The notes under the pieces were generated by a model. It made no database searches. It was not told where the DNA came from and was given only the letters and a program-made list of their open reading frames with translations. A stretch of DNA of 27,120 bases from an uncultured Candidatus Saccharibacteria bacterium (GTDB lineage: Bacteria > Patescibacteriota > Minisyncoccia > Phycocordibacterales > PALSA-1337): assembly GCA_964548575.1 (NCBI GenBank), contig CAZJQW010000003.1, forward strand, positions 1-27,120, written 5' to 3'. Of the stretch, positions 9,857 to 27,120 are shown piece by piece. Every line of letters begins with the position of its first letter. The first letter of the stretch is position 1. The translations under genes were made by a program, and so were the position numbers.

Positions 9857-10468
9857 CTATTTTCTATTACTCAGCGCATTCCTTATTGTCTCACCGTCTA
9901 CGTATTCCAATTCCGCGCCAGTGGAAAGGCCGCGGCCCAATTCTGAGATTTTTGCGTTTGTAGTGATGCGGCTTATGGCGTCACGTACAATAGTCTCCGT
10001 ATGTTCTCCATCAGAAGTCGTATTCATTGAAAGGATTATTTCTTTAAGGTTTGGTTCGGCTGATATACGTTCGAGCAAGGCCTTTAGTCTTATTCGCTTC
10101 TCGGGTTCTTTGTCGAGAATCGGCACCGTGCCTCCAAGAATGAAGTATAGGCCTTTGTAAGCGCCTGACCTTTCAATGGATTCGAAATCAGAATTGCGTT
10201 CGACGATCAGGAGGATCGATTGGTCACGAGAAGAATCCGTGCAAATTGGGCACTTGGTAGTCTTATGTAATAGATCTTTTTTTAGAAACAGCCTGTGACA
10301 GCTATCACATTCAGCGGTGCCTTTTTTGGCCTCGGTTATCGTGTCAACAAATTCCTTTATGGAAGCCGGGGACTTATTTAAGAGGTAATAAACAAAGCGC
10401 TTGGCCTGGCGCGGCCCTATTCCAGGGAAGTGTCCGAATATCTCTTCTAGTTTGCGCATATTGTCCAT
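9857..10468 (-). CDS. recR: Recombination mediator RecR
   Basis: PGIGPRQAKR, C4 zinc finger (CDSC...CPIC), YKGLYFILGG and GAELEYVD. Start moved to ATG 10468 because a promoter sits directly upstream. Confidence 0.95.
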   Translation of the reverse strand: MDNMRKLEEIFGHFPGIGPRQAKRFVYYLLNKSPASIKEFVDTITEAKKGTAECDSCHRLFLKKDLLHKTTKCPICTDSSRDQSILLIVERNSDFESIERSGAYKGLYFILGGTVPILDKEPEKRIRLKALLERISAEPNLKEIILSMNTTSDGEHTETIVRDAISRITTNAKISELGRGLSTGAELEYVDGETIRNALSNRK

Positions 10469-10474
10469 AAAACC

Positions 10475-10483
10475 AGTATACCA
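10475..10483 (-). promoter_or_regulatory. Extended -10 (TGgTATACT) of recR
   Basis: Ends 6 nt before ATG 10468. Confidence 0.6.
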
Positions 10484-10517
10484 AATATGGCTATATTGCA
10501 CATTTATTTTAATTATG

Positions 10518-10523
10518 TATAAT
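10518..10523 (+). promoter_or_regulatory. -10 element TATAAT of rplU
   Basis: Ends 10 nt before ATG 10534. Confidence 0.5.
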
Positions 10524-10533
10524 GAGTCGCATT

Positions 10534-10851
10534 ATGGAATTCGCAGTCATTGAGACAGGAGGAAAGCAATATACGGTGGGGAAAGGCGATGTTATCACCA
10601 TCGAGAAGCTTTCTGGCGAGCACAAAGAGGGCGACAAAGTCGTTTTCGACAAGGTTTTGCTCGTAGATGACGGCAACAATACTTTTATCGGCACACCTTA
10701 CATCGCCAAAGCCTCAGTCAAGGGAACTATTACTCAGATCGGTCGCGCAGCCAAGGTCATCGTCATCCATTACAAGCAGAAGAGCAGGTATTTCAAGAAG
10801 AACGGACACAGACAGCATTTCTTCAAGGTGAAGATAGACGCTTTGGCATAA
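10534..10851 (+). CDS. rplU: 50S ribosomal protein bL21
   Basis: FAVIETGGKQY and KNGHRQHF. Confidence 0.97.
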   Translation: MEFAVIETGGKQYTVGKGDVITIEKLSGEHKEGDKVVFDKVLLVDDGNNTFIGTPYIAKASVKGTITQIGRAAKVIVIHYKQKSRYFKKNGHRQHFFKVKIDALA

Positions 10852-10897
10852 GAAACAGAAAATAGAAAGCAGAAAATGGAAAATGGAAAAGGAAAAT
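10852..10897 (+). repeat. Degenerate heptamer tract (RGAAARY), about 6 units
   Basis: From 10857: AGAAAAT AGAAAGC AGAAAAT GGAAAAT GGAAAA GGAAAAT, just after the rplU stop. Confidence 0.85.
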
Positions 10898-10910
10898 GGG
10901 GCGAACAGCC

Positions 10911-11077
10911 TTATTTTTGTATATTAGAAATCTCGTTTGTTTTACGGATGAAAGCTTGCAGAAGTTTCTGAATACTTTGAATCTGAGGTTTAATTTGCTC
11001 AAAATCTTTACTGTCTATGTATTTAATGTCGCGTGCGATTATCGATCTTTAAGCTCGGTAAATCCTGTCTTATGCAT
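10911..11077 (-). pseudogene. Internally deleted and frameshifted four-helix-bundle (23S-rRNA-IVP/bAvd-like) gene remnant
   Basis: ATG 11077 gives MHKTGFTELKDR*. A second frame (11042-10911) gives IIARDIKYIDSKDFEQIKPQIQSIQKLLQAFIRKTNEISNIQK*. These resemble the N-terminal F-x-(D/E)-L-K and C-terminal I-A-x-D-L-x-Y-I...L-x-x-(F/L)-I-R segments of that family as I recall it; roughly 65-70 central codons would be missing. Confidence 0.6.
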
Positions 11078-11114
11078 TTATCTGTTTTCTGCTTTCCATT
11101 TTCCACTTTCCACT
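11078..11114 (-). repeat. Degenerate heptamer tract (RGAAARY), inverted relative to 10852-10897
   Basis: Minus strand after the dnaB stop: AGT GGAAAGT GGAAAAT GGAAAGC AGAAAAC AGATAA, then the ATG of the remnant. Confidence 0.85.
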
Positions 11115-12485
11115 CTAAAATCCACCAAAGTCCGCCTTCTCCATACTCATGAATGTGGTCTTCTTGCTGTCGAAGAATAGCTTGACCATGCCTGTTGGAC
11201 CGTTTCTGTGCTTCTCGATGAGGATCTCGGCTTCTTCTTTGCGGCCACCTTGTTCCATATCAGATTCGCGGTGAATGAACATGACGACGTCAGCGTCCTG
11301 CTCGATGGATCCAGAGTCTCGAAGGTCGGAGAGTCTAGGCTTGCCACCACGCTGTTCGACTGCACGAGAGAGCTGTGAGAGAGCGAGGACGGGTACTTCG
11401 AGCTCGCGGGCGAGATTCTTGAGTGAACGAGAGATCTCCGTGACCTGTTGGACCATGTTGTCGCTACTCCTAGTTTGCGTTGGAACCATGAGCTGGAGGT
11501 AATCGACGATGATGAGGCCAAGACCTTTTTCATTTTTGAGCCTTCTCGCGACTGCGCGCATTTTCAAGATATTGTTTCCAGGTTGATCGTCTATATAGAT
11601 AGGAGCTTCGGAGAGCTTGGCGATGGATTCGCCGATCTTCTTGAAATCATCTCCCACTGATAGATTGTGACCAGTGCGGATTTTCCAAGAGTCGACTTGA
11701 GATTCGGCGGCGAGCATGCGGTCTACGAGCTGTTGAGAACTCATTTCGAGAGAGAAGATGGCGACAGGAACTTTGAAGTTCACTGCAGCTTTGCGTGCGA
11801 TGTCTAGGGCGAGGGAAGTCTTACCCATAGAAGGACGTGCGGCGAGGATGATGAGGTCGGACTTTTGGAAGCCGGCGAGCTTGCTGTCGAGCTCGGGGAA
11901 ACCGGTGTGCACTCCTCGAATCTCATTGGTATTCGCTGCAAGGTATTCGAGGCGTTCCCATGCTCCGGACAGTGTATCTTTGAGAGCGATGAACTTGTGT
12001 GAGCCAGTCTTGTTCGTCACTGCATAGAGAGACTTCTCCGCTTTCTCGAGAATGCTGTGAAGCTCTTCCTCTTCTTCGTAGCCAAGGTTGCTTATGTTTT
12101 CCGCAGCTCGGAGAAGCTCTCGCATGATGTGCTTTTTCTGAATGATCTCAGCGTAGTGGACAGCATTCGTCGATGAGGGAACCATCTGAATGAGCTCCGT
12201 GAGCATAGTCATCCCTCCGATCTGCTCTAGCTGTTCTTTTTCTTTGAGACGCGCGGAAACTGTGAGGACGTCGATAGGGGAGCTCTTTGAATGAAGTTCG
12301 AACAAGCACTCCCAAATGATCTTGTGCTGACCCGAGTAGAAAGACTCGGAATTTATGATGTCCATGATATCGTGCATCACATCACCTCTCATCATGACCG
12401 ATCCGAGAAGAGCTTTTTCCGCATCCAGGCTGTGTGGCGGGATCTTGAGATCTTTGGTCTTGAAATAGGGTGAAGCGGTATTCAT
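11115..12485 (-). CDS. dnaB: Replicative DNA helicase
   Basis: PPHSLDAEKALLG, Walker A AARPSMGKT, FSLEMS, IVDYLQLM, SQLSRAVEQR, LSDLRDSGSIEQDAD and KHRNGPTG. Normal length, no intein. Start taken at ATG 12485. Confidence 0.98.
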   Translation of the reverse strand: MNTASPYFKTKDLKIPPHSLDAEKALLGSVMMRGDVMHDIMDIINSESFYSGQHKIIWECLFELHSKSSPIDVLTVSARLKEKEQLEQIGGMTMLTELIQMVPSSTNAVHYAEIIQKKHIMRELLRAAENISNLGYEEEEELHSILEKAEKSLYAVTNKTGSHKFIALKDTLSGAWERLEYLAANTNEIRGVHTGFPELDSKLAGFQKSDLIILAARPSMGKTSLALDIARKAAVNFKVPVAIFSLEMSSQQLVDRMLAAESQVDSWKIRTGHNLSVGDDFKKIGESIAKLSEAPIYIDDQPGNNILKMRAVARRLKNEKGLGLIIVDYLQLMVPTQTRSSDNMVQQVTEISRSLKNLARELEVPVLALSQLSRAVEQRGGKPRLSDLRDSGSIEQDADVVMFIHRESDMEQGGRKEEAEILIEKHRNGPTGMVKLFFDSKKTTFMSMEKADFGGF

Positions 12486-12504
12486 GTAAATTATTGGGAC
12501 ATCT

Positions 12505-12513
12505 ATTCTATCA
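12505..12513 (-). promoter_or_regulatory. Extended -10 (TGaTAGAAT) of dnaB
   Basis: Ends 19 nt before ATG 12485. Confidence 0.55.
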
Positions 12514-12519
12514 CGCACT

Positions 12520-12548
12520 TGCTCTTATCATAGAGCAAAATAAGAGCA
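12520..12548. promoter_or_regulatory. Inverted repeat TGCTCTTAT-N11-ATAAGAGCA, possible operator
   Basis: Lies between the divergent dnaB and pyrD promoters; an extra half-site ATAGAGCA sits in the spacer. Confidence 0.4.
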
Positions 12549-12580
12549 TTTGCGGTGCATATTGTGTGGATATCTCTGTG

Positions 12581-12589
12581 TGATAAAGT
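12581..12589 (+). promoter_or_regulatory. Extended -10 (TGaTAAAGT) of pyrD
   Basis: Ends 8 nt before ATG 12598. Confidence 0.55.
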
Positions 12590-12597
12590 ATAAGACA

Positions 12598-13656
12598 ATG
12601 ATTTACAAAATAGTCCTAAAACCGATGTTCTTTCTATTCGATCCTGAGCTGGTACATGACTTCATGACGGGCTTCGGAATATTACTCGGGTCAAATCCAG
12701 TAGGCAGAGCTTTGACTCGATTGATCTATGGCTATAAAGGGCCGGATATTTCAAAGAATGTAGATGGTATCAGGTTCAAGACCCCTTTCCTTTTGTCTGC
12801 GGGATTTGACTACAATGGGCATCTTTCGCTGATTTTGCCTCAGATCGGATTGGGTGGAGAAGAAATAGGTTCTGTGACTGCGAAAAAGTGCGAAGGCAAT
12901 CCGAAGCCTCGTCTAACTAGGCTTCCAAAATCAAAGAGCATCATTGTCAATAAGGGATTGAGAAATGACGGCGTGGATTCGATCATTTTGCGCCTAAAAA
13001 GAACACCTCGTGAAAAAGATTTTGTTCTCGGTATTTCTATAGCAAGAACGAATGACAAATGCGCCGCTTCGGTAGAGGAGGGAATTGCGGATTATGCGTA
13101 TTCTTTCAAGCGCTTGAATGAAGAAGGAGTCGGCGATTATTATACGATCAATATTTCTTGCCCCAATGCATTTGGAGGCGAGGCATTTACTACTCCAGAG
13201 TTGCTCTCGAAGCTTCTGGATGCTTTGAAATCTATTCCATGCTCCAAGCCTGTCTATATCAAGATGCCCATAAATCTTTCCTGGGACAAATTTAACGAGC
13301 TTTTGAAAGTTATCGATCAAAAGGGGATGCACGGCGTCGTCATCGGCAACCTCAACAAGGACTACGAATCCCTCGATCACCGTTTCGAAGCGCCGGCTCA
13401 CTATAGAGGTGGTCTTTCCGGAAAGCCTTGCAGAAAACCTTCGACTGACCTCATTCGTCAAACTCGCTCTACTTATGGAAGGAGATTCACGATCATCGGA
13501 GTCGGCGGTGTGATGTCTCCCGAACACGCCAAAGACAAATTCGACGCAGGCGCAGATCTTATACAACTCATTACCGGGATGATCTATGAGGGTCCGGGGT
13601 TGATCAGGAAGCTAAACAACCAAGTATCTTATTGGAATTCGAATCTCAAAAATTGA
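12598..13656 (+). CDS. pyrD: Dihydroorotate dehydrogenase, class-2-like scaffold
   Basis: N-terminal extension LFDPELVHD, SAGFDYNG, GSVT, GNPKPRL, NISCPN, GGLSGKP, IIGVGGV and ADLIQLITGMIYEGP. Confidence 0.92.
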   Translation: MIYKIVLKPMFFLFDPELVHDFMTGFGILLGSNPVGRALTRLIYGYKGPDISKNVDGIRFKTPFLLSAGFDYNGHLSLILPQIGLGGEEIGSVTAKKCEGNPKPRLTRLPKSKSIIVNKGLRNDGVDSIILRLKRTPREKDFVLGISIARTNDKCAASVEEGIADYAYSFKRLNEEGVGDYYTINISCPNAFGGEAFTTPELLSKLLDALKSIPCSKPVYIKMPINLSWDKFNELLKVIDQKGMHGVVIGNLNKDYESLDHRFEAPAHYRGGLSGKPCRKPSTDLIRQTRSTYGRRFTIIGVGGVMSPEHAKDKFDAGADLIQLITGMIYEGPGLIRKLNNQVSYWNSNLKN

Positions 13657-16906: not shown

Positions 16907-17281
16907 ATGTATACACTCATAGCTATTTTCTACGCGTCGCTTCTCTGCATGCTCATCATGCTTCTCTTGAAGCGCGCTGAAGTGAAGAGTGGCAGGAGGA
17001 ATATCGTGTCTCGATTGGGCAGGGGAACCGACCACGTTTTTGGAGCGGTCTTTTCGACTATAGGCAGATGGATATCATACGTGAACAGGAAGACTTTCAT
17101 AGTCATTGCCCAATGGATCGCTTTTCATGTCTTACTTCGGATCCGCAAAGTCTATGTGGAGGTGAAGTCCGCCGCTCTCGCCAACCCTCATTCCAAGAAA
17201 GTCATCGATGCGGTCCGCGGAAGGGCAGATGTGAAGAGGCATGGGGCGTCATTCTATTTGAGGAGGATATCTGACAAGTGA
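16907..17281 (+). CDS. Hypothetical membrane protein (124 aa)
   Basis: ATG directly after the tsf stop, an N-terminal hydrophobic helix and a basic C-terminus. Confidence 0.8.
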   Translation: MYTLIAIFYASLLCMLIMLLLKRAEVKSGRRNIVSRLGRGTDHVFGAVFSTIGRWISYVNRKTFIVIAQWIAFHVLLRIRKVYVEVKSAALANPHSKKVIDAVRGRADVKRHGASFYLRRISDK

Positions 17282-17286
17282 GGACA

Positions 17287-17370
17287 GGTAACTAGTAACT
17301 AGAGAATAGAAAGTAGAAAATGGAAAGTAGAGAATAGAAAATGGAGAATATAAAAGAGAAGTAGAAAAAT
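17287..17370 (+). repeat. Degenerate heptamer tract, 9 in-register units plus a decayed tail
   Basis: GGTAACT AGTAACT AGAGAAT AGAAAGT AGAAAAT GGAAAGT AGAGAAT AGAAAAT GGAGAAT (17287-17349). Confidence 0.85.
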
Positions 17371-17404
17371 GCCGCAGCTCCCGAAGGAGATGCGGCGGTT
17401 TGAT
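17365..17404. terminator. Intrinsic terminator between convergent genes
   Basis: GCCGCA-g-CTCC-cgaa-GGAG-a-TGCGGC (17371-17396), T-rich afterwards on the minus strand. Confidence 0.7.
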
Positions 17405-17773
17405 TTAGCCTGAAAAGCTGTCTATAGGAACCACATCCAGATAGAGAGCATCTGTTTTTGGCAACGCCCGTACTCTTAAGATTTTTTTGGAAGAGCCTTT
17501 CCAGAAGATCTTGATTTGCATTTCGTCCACTAAATGCCTATGAAGCAAGAATTTAATCGCCTGGATGAAATCATATTGGTCTGGAACCGAAAGACTTATA
17601 AACCTGCTCACCAGTTCCAGATTGTCAAAGAGGATCACTGTTCCATCTGTACCAGGAACCCTGTATCTGGGTTTATCTGTGGACTGCCCAAGGAAGGCTT
17701 TTTCAATGGTCGTCTTGTACGGAATAACGTCTTCGAGCTCGCATTCCGTGTACGCATTTTTAACTATTTGCAT
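17405..17773 (-). CDS. Hypothetical protein (122 aa)
   Basis: SD GAAAGGA close to the ATG, a clear upstream promoter and a downstream terminator. No family recognised. Confidence 0.7.
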   Translation of the reverse strand: MQIVKNAYTECELEDVIPYKTTIEKAFLGQSTDKPRYRVPGTDGTVILFDNLELVSRFISLSVPDQYDFIQAIKFLLHRHLVDEMQIKIFWKGSSKKILRVRALPKTDALYLDVVPIDSFSG

Positions 17774-17786
17774 TTTTCCTTTCTAT

Positions 17787-17843
17787 ACCGAATCACCGTG
17801 CACAGATGCAGTTAGTGCACACATTCGGTTTGTTTAGCATCTG
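17787..17843 (-). promoter_or_regulatory. Structured, pseudoknot-capable 5' leader of the 122-aa gene
   Basis: Three helices: ACCGAAT 17787-93/17823-29, GTGCAC 17798-803/17815-20 and CAGATGC 17803-09/17837-43. Confidence 0.4.
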
Positions 17844-17878: not shown

Positions 17879-17992
17879 TTAAGATATACGGTATTATCAC
17901 ATAGAGAAAGGAAAGTTATGAATCAACACCGTTGGTACAATAAGTTTGTTGATAGGAAGGATTACTTCACTTTCATTCAAAAAAAGTAGATG

Positions 17993-18001
17993 TGATATAG
18001 T
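17993..18001 (+). promoter_or_regulatory. Extended -10 (TGaTATAGT) of the GH3 gene
   Basis: Ends 10 nt before ATG 18012. Confidence 0.55.
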
Positions 18002-18011
18002 TGATGCGATT

Positions 18012-19136
18012 ATGAAACAGCTATTCATCGTAATTTTTATATTTGCAGTTTTATTCTCCGTTATTTATTATGGTTGGACTTCCCGACCACAAGAAAATCA
18101 ACTCGTTGCTAATCTTGTTAATGTACAGACAATTAATCCAGTCACTGCTAATCCAGTCACTGCTAAAGTTCAGCAAATGTCTTTAGATGAAAAGATAGGG
18201 CAAATGCTCATAGTAGGCTTTGAACATAATTATGTGGATAGTCATATCAAAATGATGATTGAAAAGTATCATATTGGTGGCATAAATCTCCTGAAAAGGA
18301 ATGTTAAAGACAAAAATCAAATAACTGAAATGATTTCCCAATTACAGAAATTATCCGACATACCTATTTTTATTTCGACTGATCAGGAAGGTGGTGCTTT
18401 CTCACGTTTCAAATTTTTAAAAGAACTTACGGTACAAACCAAAATAATGTCAGTTGAGAAAGCAGAAGCTTTAGCATACAAGAGGGCTATAGAACTCAGA
18501 GCTTTGGGAGTTAACATGAATTATTCTCCGGTTCTTGACTATGTTTCGGACCCAAAATCATATTTATACTCTCGGACTTTTGGAACAAGCCCAGAAAAGA
18601 TTGGTGACCTTGGAAATGCGATGATAAAAGGATATATGAAAGGGGGTGTTATACCCGTAAGTAAACATTTTCCTGGGTACGGGAATATTTATCCAGATCC
18701 GCACAAGAATGAAGCTGTTACAAACATAAGCAGTGATGATTTTCTGACCAATCTTTTGCCTTTCATAGAGGTAATTCAGGATAACCGTGAAGGAGCTATT
18801 ATGACTGCTCATATTAAGATCCCCAGTATTGATGCAAAGCCTGCAACTGAATCCCACAGAATCTTAACGCAAATCCTAAGAGATAAACTCGGTTTTGAGG
18901 GAATTATTATAACCGACGATATGGAAATGGCTTCAGTAGGAACTTCGACGGAAAATTCCGCTTTGGAAGCAGTCAAAGCTGGTGCAGATATGATTATTTC
19001 CACTTATACTCCAGAAAAACACATAAAAATATTTAATCGCCTGAAGGAGGCTGTTAACAACGGAGAAATCGCTGAAGAAAAGATTGATAAGTCTGTGGAA
19101 AGAATACTTAAGTTAAAAAATATTCTGATTTTGTAA
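18012..19136 (+). CDS. Membrane-anchored or secreted GH3 beta-N-acetylhexosaminidase (NagZ-like)
   Basis: N-terminal TM/signal, MSLDEKIGQM, DQEGG, NYSPVLD, SRTFG, KHFPGYGxxxxDPH, IMTAH and IITDDMEM. Confidence 0.9.
   Translation: MKQLFIVIFIFAVLFSVIYYGWTSRPQENQLVANLVNVQTINPVTANPVTAKVQQMSLDEKIGQMLIVGFEHNYVDSHIKMMIEKYHIGGINLLKRNVKDKNQITEMISQLQKLSDIPIFISTDQEGGAFSRFKFLKELTVQTKIMSVEKAEALAYKRAIELRALGVNMNYSPVLDYVSDPKSYLYSRTFGTSPEKIGDLGNAMIKGYMKGGVIPVSKHFPGYGNIYPDPHKNEAVTNISSDDFLTNLLPFIEVIQDNREGAIMTAHIKIPSIDAKPATESHRILTQILRDKLGFEGIIITDDMEMASVGTSTENSALEAVKAGADMIISTYTPEKHIKIFNRLKEAVNNGEIAEEKIDKSVERILKLKNILIL
18134..18166 (+). repeat. Perfect 15-bp tandem duplication (NPVTA x2) in the GH3 linker
   Basis: TAATCCAGTCACTGC TAATCCAGTCACTGC TAA. 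Confidence 0.9.
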
Positions 19137-23837: not shown

Positions 23838-23962
23838 AAAGGAATATAATTGTGGCAATACAATATATCGCCGCGTTATTTCTTATCTCCAAACATAGTA
23901 GGCGCGGACACAATGTCAGTTTATTAGAGTAATTATTGTGTATGCCTATTATGCTTTCACCT

Positions 23963-24415
23963 ATGCAAAGGGATTATATATCCCGAAAAGAGTTCGCATA
24001 TCTCAAAACCTATATGGACGACGGCTTTATCGGAATAGATAAAGTGATGACATTTGGTTTTGATGAGATTGGGAATCGATTTGGTAAAGTTGAGAAACAG
24101 TTCAGTAAAATTGACGAACACTTTACTAAAGTTCAAGATCAGTTCAAACTGTTCGATGTTAAATTCAGTAAAATTGACGATCAGTTTACTAAAGTATGGG
24201 ATCAATTGAATCGTCTTGATAAGCGTCTCAGTCATGTCGAAACTGAGCTTATTGAGATAAAGAAACACCTAAATAGTCTAGAAATGCGTTTTGAGGCATT
24301 TGAGAAGCGTTTGGACGTAAAATTTGAGTCATATGAAAGATCTATTCAGCTCCTTATTCACATGAATACGAGAATAGCCGAAGATCTCGGTGAGATGCGA
24401 CATCTAAATCGCTAA
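23963..24415 (+). CDS. Heptad-repeat coiled-coil protein; start uncertain (23936-23963)
   Basis: F/L every 7 residues (FGKVEKQ FSKIDEH FTKVQDQ FKLFDVK FSKIDDQ FTKVWDQ LNRLDKR LSHVETE), in AT-rich DNA. Confidence 0.75.
   Translation: MQRDYISRKEFAYLKTYMDDGFIGIDKVMTFGFDEIGNRFGKVEKQFSKIDEHFTKVQDQFKLFDVKFSKIDDQFTKVWDQLNRLDKRLSHVETELIEIKKHLNSLEMRFEAFEKRLDVKFESYERSIQLLIHMNTRIAEDLGEMRHLNR
24101..24195 (+). repeat. 32-bp direct repeat, copies 63 bp apart (2 mismatches), inside the coiled-coil gene
   Basis: TTCAGTAAAATTGACGAACACTTTACTAAAGT (24101-32) vs TTCAGTAAAATTGACGATCAGTTTACTAAAGT (24164-95). Confidence 0.85.
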
Positions 24416-26642: not shown

Positions 26643-26647
26643 AGGGC

Positions 26648-26740
26648 GGAAAGTAGAAAGTGGAAAATAGATGTGGAATCGCAGAAGTCATCTGCGATTT
26701 CTATTTTCTATTTTCTATTTTTCGTTTTTCTACTCTTTCT
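26648..26740. repeat. Inverted pair of heptamer tracts enclosing a hairpin
   Basis: Plus strand GGAAAGT AGAAAGT GGAAAAT (26648-68). Minus strand after the hsp20 stop: AGAAAGAGT AGAAAAAC GAAAAAT AGAAAAT AGAAAAT. Confidence 0.8.
26677..26699. terminator. Bidirectional hairpin between gyrB and hsp20
   Basis: AATCGCAGA-agtca-TCTGCGATT, a 9-bp perfect stem, T-rich downstream on the plus strand. Confidence 0.7.
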
Positions 26741-27120
26741 ACGCTGTTCTAACTTTGAGCTTTGATTGCCTCTTCTTGTCCAATTTCGGTAGCTTCAATA
26801 TCAAAAGTCCGTGTTTCTCGATCGCCTCCGCTTCATCTACGTCTATCTCTTCTGGAAGGGTAATAGATCTCGAGAATGATCCCCAATACAATTCTCGAAG
26901 AAAATAATCTTCATTTCTTGCGACTCTCTCTTCTTCTCTTTTGCCTCTAATCGTTACAAGATCGCGAGTGATAGAAATGTCGAGGTCTTCTGGGCGCACG
27001 CCGGCTATCATACTCTTTATGACTATCATGTCAGATGTTTGATAAACATCCACGGTTAGCTCTCCATCTTGTTCGGTTTCTTGGTCCATCCATGATTCAC
27101 CTCCGGAGAGGGTGGAGCTT
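26739..27120 (-). CDS. Hsp20/alpha-crystallin small heat-shock protein, 5' end probably beyond the window
   Basis: GELTVDVYQT, AGVRPEDLDI, TIRGKR, ELYWGSFSRSITLP and GLLILKLPK. The frame is open to the window edge (..SSTLSGGESWMDQ..), so ATG 27089 may be internal. Confidence 0.92.
   Translation of the reverse strand, partial: SSTLSGGESWMDQETEQDGELTVDVYQTSDMIVIKSMIAGVRPEDLDISITRDLVTIRGKREEERVARNEDYFLRELYWGSFSRSITLPEEIDVDEAEAIEKHGLLILKLPKLDKKRQSKLKVRTA

Follow-up and report, generated by a model that had tools for sequence, protein, structure and literature searches.

A decayed four-helix-bundle gene between inverted heptamer tracts in the rplU-dnaB gap of a patescibacterial genome, very probably the remnant of a small selfish cassette

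Intervening sequences (IVS) of 23S rRNA that carry an S23p open reading frame (ORF), known from Leptospira and Coxiella burnetii (PMC4990558), are the closest known relatives of the element described here, which fills the 263-nt gap between rplU and dnaB in a 27,120-nt stretch of DNA from an uncultured Candidatus Saccharibacteria bacterium (contig CAZJQW010000003.1, positions 1 to 27,120; this whole stretch is hereafter called the window). In the Coxiella IVS, the S23p start codon is preceded by three tandem copies of the heptamer GACAGAT, whose number varies between strains, and the terminal stem measures 28 bp; RNase III cuts this IVS in vitro, with the mapped ends in mid-stem (PMC4990558). 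The window element resembles such IVS in its PF05635 ORF, in tandem heptamers of strain-variable number directly upstream of the start codon, in inverted terminal repeats able to form a stem around the insert, in an ORF that decays and a stem that persists, and in encoding no recombinase. Unlike them, it is located between the stop codons of two protein-coding genes, dnaB and rplU, and not in helix 25 or 45 of 23S rRNA, and its arms consist entirely of heptamers; cutting by RNase III would be expected by analogy. It is a decayed IVS-type S23p/four-helix-bundle (4HB) element outside rRNA.

Three further systems share parts of this design. The family is homologous to bAvd, the accessory protein of diversity-generating retroelements (DGR), and has the same 4HB fold; bAvd forms positively charged pentamers and binds RNA (bioRxiv 10.1101/2023.10.23.563531), and the family structures 2GSC and 2RLD have five chains each. 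Unlike its counterpart in a DGR, the 4HB gene stands alone inside heptamer arms, with no reverse transcriptase and no template or variable repeats. The REPIN/RAYT system (PMC3116915) offers an analogy only: genome-specific short intergenic hairpins, one small gene flanked by them, and empty copies that far outnumber the gene. RAYT, however, is a Y1 transposase of known chemistry, whereas the 4HB protein is without a recognised catalytic domain, and the window arms are tandem 7-mers, not a palindromic REP (repetitive extragenic palindromic) unit. No transposase family, Y1 (IS200/IS605-like) included, was matched; the flanked gene belongs to PF05635. Heptameric repeats have been described as cyanobacterial short tandemly repeated repetitive (STRR) sequences, as GGGAATC in Xanthomonas and GGGGAYT in Nostoc (PMC4692102), and as TAACTGA in Beggiatoaceae (PMC4679880). 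They too are tandem 7-nt units with lineage-specific sequences, lie in intergenic spacers near start or stop codons, and often form convergent pairs; X. campestris has 186 GGGAATC tracts and 70 such pairs, as reported by Rehm et al. (PMC4692102). As published, they are G-quadruplex or regulatory elements with no link to 4HB proteins, whereas here the repeats enclose a gene. The S23p/4HB family is mentioned neither in PMC4692102 nor in MacGregor's TAACTGA paper (PMC4679880), and full-text literature searches returned no paper linking the family to heptamer tracts; the searchable papers treat the pieces separately.

In the present study we describe the rplU-dnaB gap and its counterparts in other genomes. 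What fills the gap is very probably a small selfish cassette turned pseudogene, of which relatives have intact copies at this site. rplU (10522-10851, plus strand) and dnaB (11115-12518, minus strand) converge, with stop codons at 10849-10851 and 11115-11117, and the intervening 263 nt (10852-11114) hold the following features, in the order of the minus strand (L numbers denote relatives).

11078-11114, minus strand: 5' arm of purine-rich heptamers, GGAAAGT GGAAAAT GGAAAGC AGAAAAC AGATAA, running from the dnaB stop to the ATG; alike in intact orthologues.
11063-11077, minus strand: retained start-codon region ATGCATAAGACAGGA and putative junction of a large deletion; ATGCA is common to the gene starts of L020, L021 and L082, and helix-3 homology resumes at GGA.
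11039-11065, minus strand: GFTELKDR and stop, apparently the end of helix 3 (family consensus GSLTELKNQL), in the ATG frame; premature TAA; hhalign probability 98%.
11042-11047, minus strand: putative 4-nt deletion (frameshift) at the ATCGAT palindrome; 8 nt vs 12 nt in orthologues (AATCAACTTTTA).
10911-11042, minus strand: helix-4 and C-terminal part IIARDIKYIDSKDFEQIKPQIQSIQKLLQAFIRKTNEISNIQK, stop at 10913-10911; PF05635/TIGR02436 matches, tblastn, family profile 34.7 bits.
10852-10899, minus strand: 3' arm, the pyrimidine-rich heptamer complement (a purine tract on the plus strand), reaching the rplU stop and pairing with the 5' arm.

Read on the minus strand, the ATG at 11077 opens MHKTGFTELKDR, followed by a stop, and another reading frame gives SIIARDIKYIDSKDFEQIKPQIQSIQKLLQAFIRKTNEISNIQK up to the stop at 10913-10911; the pyrimidine tract (10899-10852) lies beyond that stop, and the ATCGAT palindrome is at 11041-11046. 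An earlier reading of the window from its letters alone (hereafter the sequence-only reading) had given the coordinates of the gap, heptamers, ATG, stops and palindrome correctly. It had also described a remnant bounded by inverted heptamer arms, and the arms are indeed inverted repeats of each other, 81-85% complementary over 26 nt or 94% over 18 nt, and pair as a ~27-bp stem in the minimum-free-energy RNA fold. The motif RGAAARN repeated three times (≤2 mismatches) has 18 matches in the window against 0.18 expected from shuffles, spread over three sites: the rplU/dnaB gap, 17283-17370 and 26643-26741. An Rfam scan of the window found no family covering the hairpins and no rRNA. No terminator-like site (GC-rich stem and U run) was found within 10400-11500, where a promoter and terminator scan gave nothing above chance.

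The fragment belongs to the 4HB family, as the sequence-only reading had proposed in speaking of a hidden gene remnant. Its C-terminal peptide matches positions 77-105 of 106 in PF05635 (E = 0.003) and 73-108 of 109 in TIGR02436 (E = 2e-4), the two families that had been named. Alone, the remnant scores 18-21 bits against a Pfam cut-off of 33.8, and in TIGR02436 the C-terminal piece reaches 21.4 bits and the joined 56-aa peptide 24.2 bits (cut-off 24); such scores are to be expected of a 40% fragment, and the register is correct, at the end of the model that corresponds to the C-terminus. The 56-aa peptide gave no match in a word-indexed homology search, and intact orthologues served as a bridge: in tblastn, the fragment aligns with residues 83-126 of the orthologues at the locus at 38-46% identity (E = 3e-6 to 6e-5), hhalign against a 28-member family alignment gives 98% probability, and a 103-sequence family profile gives 46.3 bits for the continuous reading and 34.7 bits for the C-terminal piece alone. 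One orthologous protein (P0001, from L021) is found in a public collection as 'four helix bundle protein' (PF05635 and PF22296), with 5,957 homologues, and the family profile matches PDB entries 2GSC, which is XCC0516 (E = 7e-28), and 2RLD. In PADLOC the 4HB proteins match no defence system. The window copy retains only profile positions 77-127, split by a frameshift, and the invariant SNIAEGF motif is gone; judged by its sequence, it is a 4HB (PF05635/TIGR02436) pseudogene and not a functional member of the family.

The orthologous site was compared in relatives. By its genes the window is a densely coding stretch of a patescibacterial genome (Paceibacterota / Candidatus Taylorbacteria-like), and its DnaB is 63-83% identical to those of 80 metagenome-assembled genomes from that group. 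In L005, L020 and L021 an intact 127-128-aa 4HB gene adjoins the dnaB stop on the same strand and lies inside its own inverted heptamer arms, and the cassettes contain no other ORF. L002 has kept both arms, with only the last 12 codons of the ORF (LLQGLITKTNSF). Most relatives have a clean empty site; in L019 the recR start follows the dnaB stop after 15 nt, with no tract. L016 retains the 3' arm of an L021-type cassette, and a 210-aa ORF (no Pfam match) and a NUDIX gene replace the 4HB gene and the 5' arm (11365-12600). DnaB is near-identical in L021 (intact), L019 (empty) and L016 (3' arm only). Since the whole unit is present in L021 and absent from L019, the arms are gained or lost with the ORF, and the two behave as one insertion/deletion unit. 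At this site the heptamer arms of the more distant L056 enclose a divergent PF05635 gene (E = 4e-17) together with a membrane ORF, and the occupied sites are scattered on the DnaB tree. Together the alleles form a decay series from the intact gene through 55 codons (window) and 12 codons (L002) to an empty hairpin, in which the ORF, by its sequence, decays faster than the arms. The element had been called a decaying cassette and a candidate mobile one. This series, with intact, reduced and empty alleles side by side in relatives, upholds the first description; mobility gains indirect support from presence and absence in near-identical genomes and from related ORFs in unrelated contexts, and no mechanism for it was found.

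The association of 4HB genes with heptamer arms extends well beyond this site. A metagenome scan with the 28-member alignment yielded 80 loci, with 77 non-redundant 4HB ORFs having both flanks. For a period of 7, the best window in the 70-nt flanks scores on average 14.5 of 21 on the upstream side and 12.6 on the downstream side, compared with 8.4-8.9 for periods 5, 6, 8 and 9. At least one flank has a tract in 78% of the 4HB genes vs 22% of 73 neighbouring control ORFs, and the two arms of one locus match each other far better, as complements, than do arms combined from different loci (medians 10 and 6.5, p = 2e-19). The statement in the sequence-only reading that such genes often lie between 7-mer repeats thus holds when tested. 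Stems end a median of 6 nt ahead of the ATG and 2.5 nt past the stop, and the tracts are phase-locked to the start codon, in the form (ANGAWTT)3-ATG ... stop-(WTCWTAA)n; purine content is higher in the upstream arm for 70 of the 77, and in predicted RNA folds the arms pair. In 56 of 58 cases the upstream neighbour points the same way as the 4HB gene, and in 55 of 62 the downstream neighbour does so; the gaps measure ~33-37 nt, and the cassette therefore fills a spacer inside an operon. In the rest of its locus, 9-mers from a cassette's arms are found again at 3.2 per kb, vs 1.2 per kb for the arms of other loci (p = 2e-5), and the recurrences inspected are short, empty intergenic hairpins. The flanks of related ORFs (79-84% nt identity) are unrelated.

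The gene-plus-heptamer design is present in every phylum sampled, namely Patescibacteria, cyanobacteria, Bacteroidota, Gemmatimonadota and Proteobacteria. A tblastn search against plasmids returned 35 records, mostly cyanobacterial, ten of which were inspected. Inverted arms enclose the gene in Nostoc edaphicum, as (GGGAGTA)8 / (TCCCTAC)4, and in Geminocystis, Picosynechococcus, Leptolyngbya and Riemerella (Bacteroidota). The Azospirillum copy is a classical IVS, since it lies inside 23S rRNA. In Xanthomonas, the published list already has a GGGAATC tract (repeat 15 in the supplement of Rehm et al.), 6 nt from bccP, that overlaps the start codon of XCC0516, the protein of 2GSC; the link to the 4HB family is not drawn there (PMC4692102). 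Several plasmid copies lie between cas genes, cas6/cas4 and cas10/cmr3 (L161 and L163, cyanobacterial plasmids). Such locations may reflect insertion into an operon rather than a CRISPR function, and may also explain why '23S rRNA IVP' appears among CRISPR-associated domains in a clustering study (PMC10910872).

From these comparisons and the known systems a life cycle can be proposed. An intact cassette consists of purine-rich 7-nt repeats ending at the ATG, an ORF of ~125 aa for a 4HB protein, and complementary repeats starting from the stop codon. By analogy with IVS, it would be transcribed by read-through from the host operon, and its arms would pair in the transcript as a stem of ~25-30 bp, as in the ORF-bearing IVS of 23S rRNA. 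RNase III might then cut the stem, again as in IVS, and because of this proposed cut the insertion would do little harm to the host transcript. Homology to bAvd predicts a protein that assembles as a positively charged, pentameric barrel and binds nucleic acid, with the heptamer repeats as a likely candidate ligand. Copies decay by deletions in the ORF while the arms survive, and the window copy would now be no more than a spacer bounded by a hairpin, lying where the convergent transcripts of dnaB and rplU have their 3' ends; at most it still works as a hairpin.

Several observations weigh against this interpretation. No recombinase encoded by the element was found, and occupied and empty sites compared by eye revealed no target-site duplication, so that the mobility of the cassette can only be inferred. 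About a fifth of the 4HB genes have no clear tract, the tracts of Pseudanabaena, (AAAAGCT)12, and Gemmatirosa are direct rather than inverted, and tracts of the same type occur at two further sites of the window that have no 4HB gene. Fold z-scores are modest (window remnant -2.4, L021 -2.6), and stem mismatches show no G-U excess (G-U 34 vs A-C 29), and therefore give no positive sign that pairing was selected at the RNA rather than the DNA level.

Some of these points would also fit a different and, in our view, unlikely relation between gene and repeats, in which the heptamer hairpins are an independent host-wide intergenic repeat (REP-like or terminator-like) and 4HB genes insert into the loops, the arms being the target. 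Tracts do occur at 26643-26741 and 17283-17370 in the window with no 4HB gene between them, many short 'empty' hairpins of the same repeat unit lie near cassettes, Xanthomonas has ~186 tracts and a single 4HB gene (XCC0516) identified among their neighbours, and the 23S IVS elements are located at helix tips. Against this, the empty orthologous site of L019 is without any tract, and its near-identical relative L021 has both arms and ORF. Start and stop codons are, moreover, phase-locked to the tracts, and the decay series from an intact gene through 55 and 12 codons down to a hairpin means that empty hairpins can themselves derive from cassettes.

The way in which the window copy was damaged was also considered. 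Judged from the alignments, there are two lesions, a deletion of ~200 nt behind the ATG and a separate 4-nt frameshift at ATCGAT. The large deletion spans about codons 2-5 to about 71, i.e. helices 1-3 with the SNIAEGF motif, and its junction lies within 11063-11080, directly behind the retained ATGCA start. The 4-nt deletion (11042-11047) yields the ATCGAT palindrome and the frame change, from which the premature TAA after GFTELKDR follows. GFTELKDR|IIARDI comes out as continuous in the comparison with the closest intact orthologues (L005 and L082), in hhalign and in the family profile alike; hhalign aligns GFTELKDRSIIARDIKYI as one unbroken stretch with the family GSLTELKNQLLIARDIxYI, straight across the junction, and MAFFT likewise aligns continuously, with a 4-nt gap. 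The continuous reading covers profile positions 77-125 of 127.

The sequence-only reading had seen matters otherwise: the two peptides were the two ends of the protein, joined by one internal deletion at ATCGAT. In this reconstruction, which is quite improbable, MHKTGFTELK would be the true N-terminus, with an FTDLK motif, and a single deletion of ~212 nt would have fused it to helix 4, which likewise accounts for the frame change. The start of the L021 gene, ATGCAGATTGAGAAATTTACAGACTTAAAGA, does resemble the first 32 nt of the window copy (local score 12 vs 6 mid-gene), and a short probe scores higher at the N-terminus of L082 (8 vs 5). Full-length alignment to L082 nevertheless puts the stretch mid-gene, and the phylogenetically closer L005 favours the mid-gene position by 12 vs 5, with ACCGAGCTTAAA matching its ACCGAGCTCAAA at 11 of 12 bases. 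In the 103-sequence profile the N-terminal piece gains 0.1 bits at the N-terminal FTDLK position and +11.6 bits if joined to the C-terminal piece, and neither hhalign nor MAFFT breaks at the junction. The supposed N-terminal peptide is thus the end of helix 3 by profile, hhalign and L005, the large deletion lies behind the ATG, and ATCGAT marks the 4-nt frameshift. Because ~200 nt are lost behind the ATG and the frame is shifted by 4 nt, the window copy should no longer make a protein.

Tandem and inverted repeats are difficult to assemble, and a full-length gene collapsed by the assembler could leave a short gap; the sequence-only reading had raised this concern. A separate Logan assembly (SRR27710297_853, 19.9 kb) makes such a collapse very improbable, since it has the same locus with the same 263-nt gap and no indel. 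It differs from the window at 6 single-nucleotide polymorphisms (SNPs) in 7,371 nt, three of which fall in the gap (10884, 10892 and 10991; Fisher p = 8e-4); the 3' heptamer tract has two of these and the coding remnant the third, and the neighbouring 5.6 kb are identical. The gap SNPs mean that the contig is not a mere copy of the window sequence, so the gap is not an assembly artefact, and their excess suggests relaxed constraint or fast turnover of the tracts. A leftover accessory gene (avd) of a DGR is hardly credible: PF05635 proteins are sequence and structure relatives of bAvd (PMC10053308), but no reverse transcriptase was matched among the scanned or annotated ORFs of the window, and the intact orthologous cassettes (L005, L020 and L021) hold only the 4HB ORF.

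The surroundings of the site show further variation. The dnaB-recR spacer is a hotspot, in which other relatives carry other, seemingly unrelated ORFs. The gene order dnaB, recR, convergent rplU is found in every relative in which both genes were located (60 of 80), L055 excepted. The window (9857-11114) and the Logan contig have recR beyond rplU instead. In L020 and L005, recR has direct copies of the 3' tract on either side, which makes a tract-mediated rearrangement conceivable. In the same two genomes, heptamer tracts of the own unit lie in frame within recR, in the zinc-finger loop between two CxxC pairs (L020 4209-4240; L005 5572-5607); within one genome, therefore, the tracts of a given unit spread or become homogenised, even into ORFs. 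Further own-unit copies are found just ahead of the rplU stop (L020 5292-5322; L005 6042-6079).

Family-matched ORFs of the window are housekeeping genes (ParB, TopA, DprA, SerS, Dus, RecR, L21, DnaB, PyrD, S2, EF-Ts, PheST, GyrB and Hsp20), and a few ORFs have no family match. The sequence-only reading had called the cassette transposase-less, and among the scanned or annotated ORFs of the window no transposase, integrase, recombinase or reverse transcriptase was matched. Two other sites in the window have tracts of the same type.

26643-26741, no strand assigned: second inverted heptamer pair, 'empty', running exactly from the gyrB stop to the hsp20 stop, with a 9-bp hairpin inside; RNA fold -46.9 kcal/mol, z = -6.7.
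17283-17790, minus strand: third site, cassette-like, with a cargo that is not 4HB; ~85-nt tract, GC hairpin, 122-aa ORF 17405-17773 and partner tract 17774-17790.

The first is probably either what a fully decayed cassette has left behind or a hairpin element that stands by itself. At the second, the ~85-nt tract (17283-17370) follows the stop of ORF 16907-17281 and reads (GTAACTA)2 and then (RAGAAWR)n, and the short complementary tract at 17774-17790 touches the ATG of ORF 17405-17773 (minus strand). This ORF belongs to a small uncharacterised family with 36 distant representatives and a conserved FRIPAAD...FF.N.EL..RF...P.Q...W pattern. Its AlphaFold model has a pLDDT of 90, RelE/HigB-like matches are weak, no significant PDB match was found, and PADLOC gave no defence-system match; it may be a second kind of cargo. 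Repeats of other types were also noted: in-frame 21-nt tandem repeats (24084-24193) within ORF 23936-24415, which has a weak, sub-threshold DUF16 match, and a perfect 15-nt duplication (TAATCCAGTCACTGC x2.2, 18134-18166) near the start of the GH3-like ORF 17946-19136.

The locus itself is of modest interest, and the general link between gene and heptamers is more valuable: it offers a candidate ligand for an orphan protein family and a candidate origin for heptamer repeats, and it is testable in culturable bacteria. As a tentative generalisation, for which the odds are at present rather against than for, PF05635 proteins and heptamer tracts may be one widespread two-part system, in which the gene always sits in its own repeats, hairpins of that repeat unit are scattered over the genome, and the pentamer binds or propagates them; such a system would share the logic of REPIN/RAYT without the known chemistry of a transposase. 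If true, it would explain the long-noted excess of heptameric repeats in bacterial intergenic DNA (the cyanobacterial STRR, GGGAATC in Xanthomonas), the origin of the ORF-bearing intervening sequences of 23S rRNA, and what thousands of genes annotated 'four helix bundle protein' do. One lineage displays all the stages, with the cassette intact, half deleted, almost gone, reduced to an empty hairpin, or absent from a clean empty site. Annotation of the gene-dense genomes of Patescibacteria (candidate phyla radiation) is likely to overlook or misread hairpins and gene remnants of this kind.

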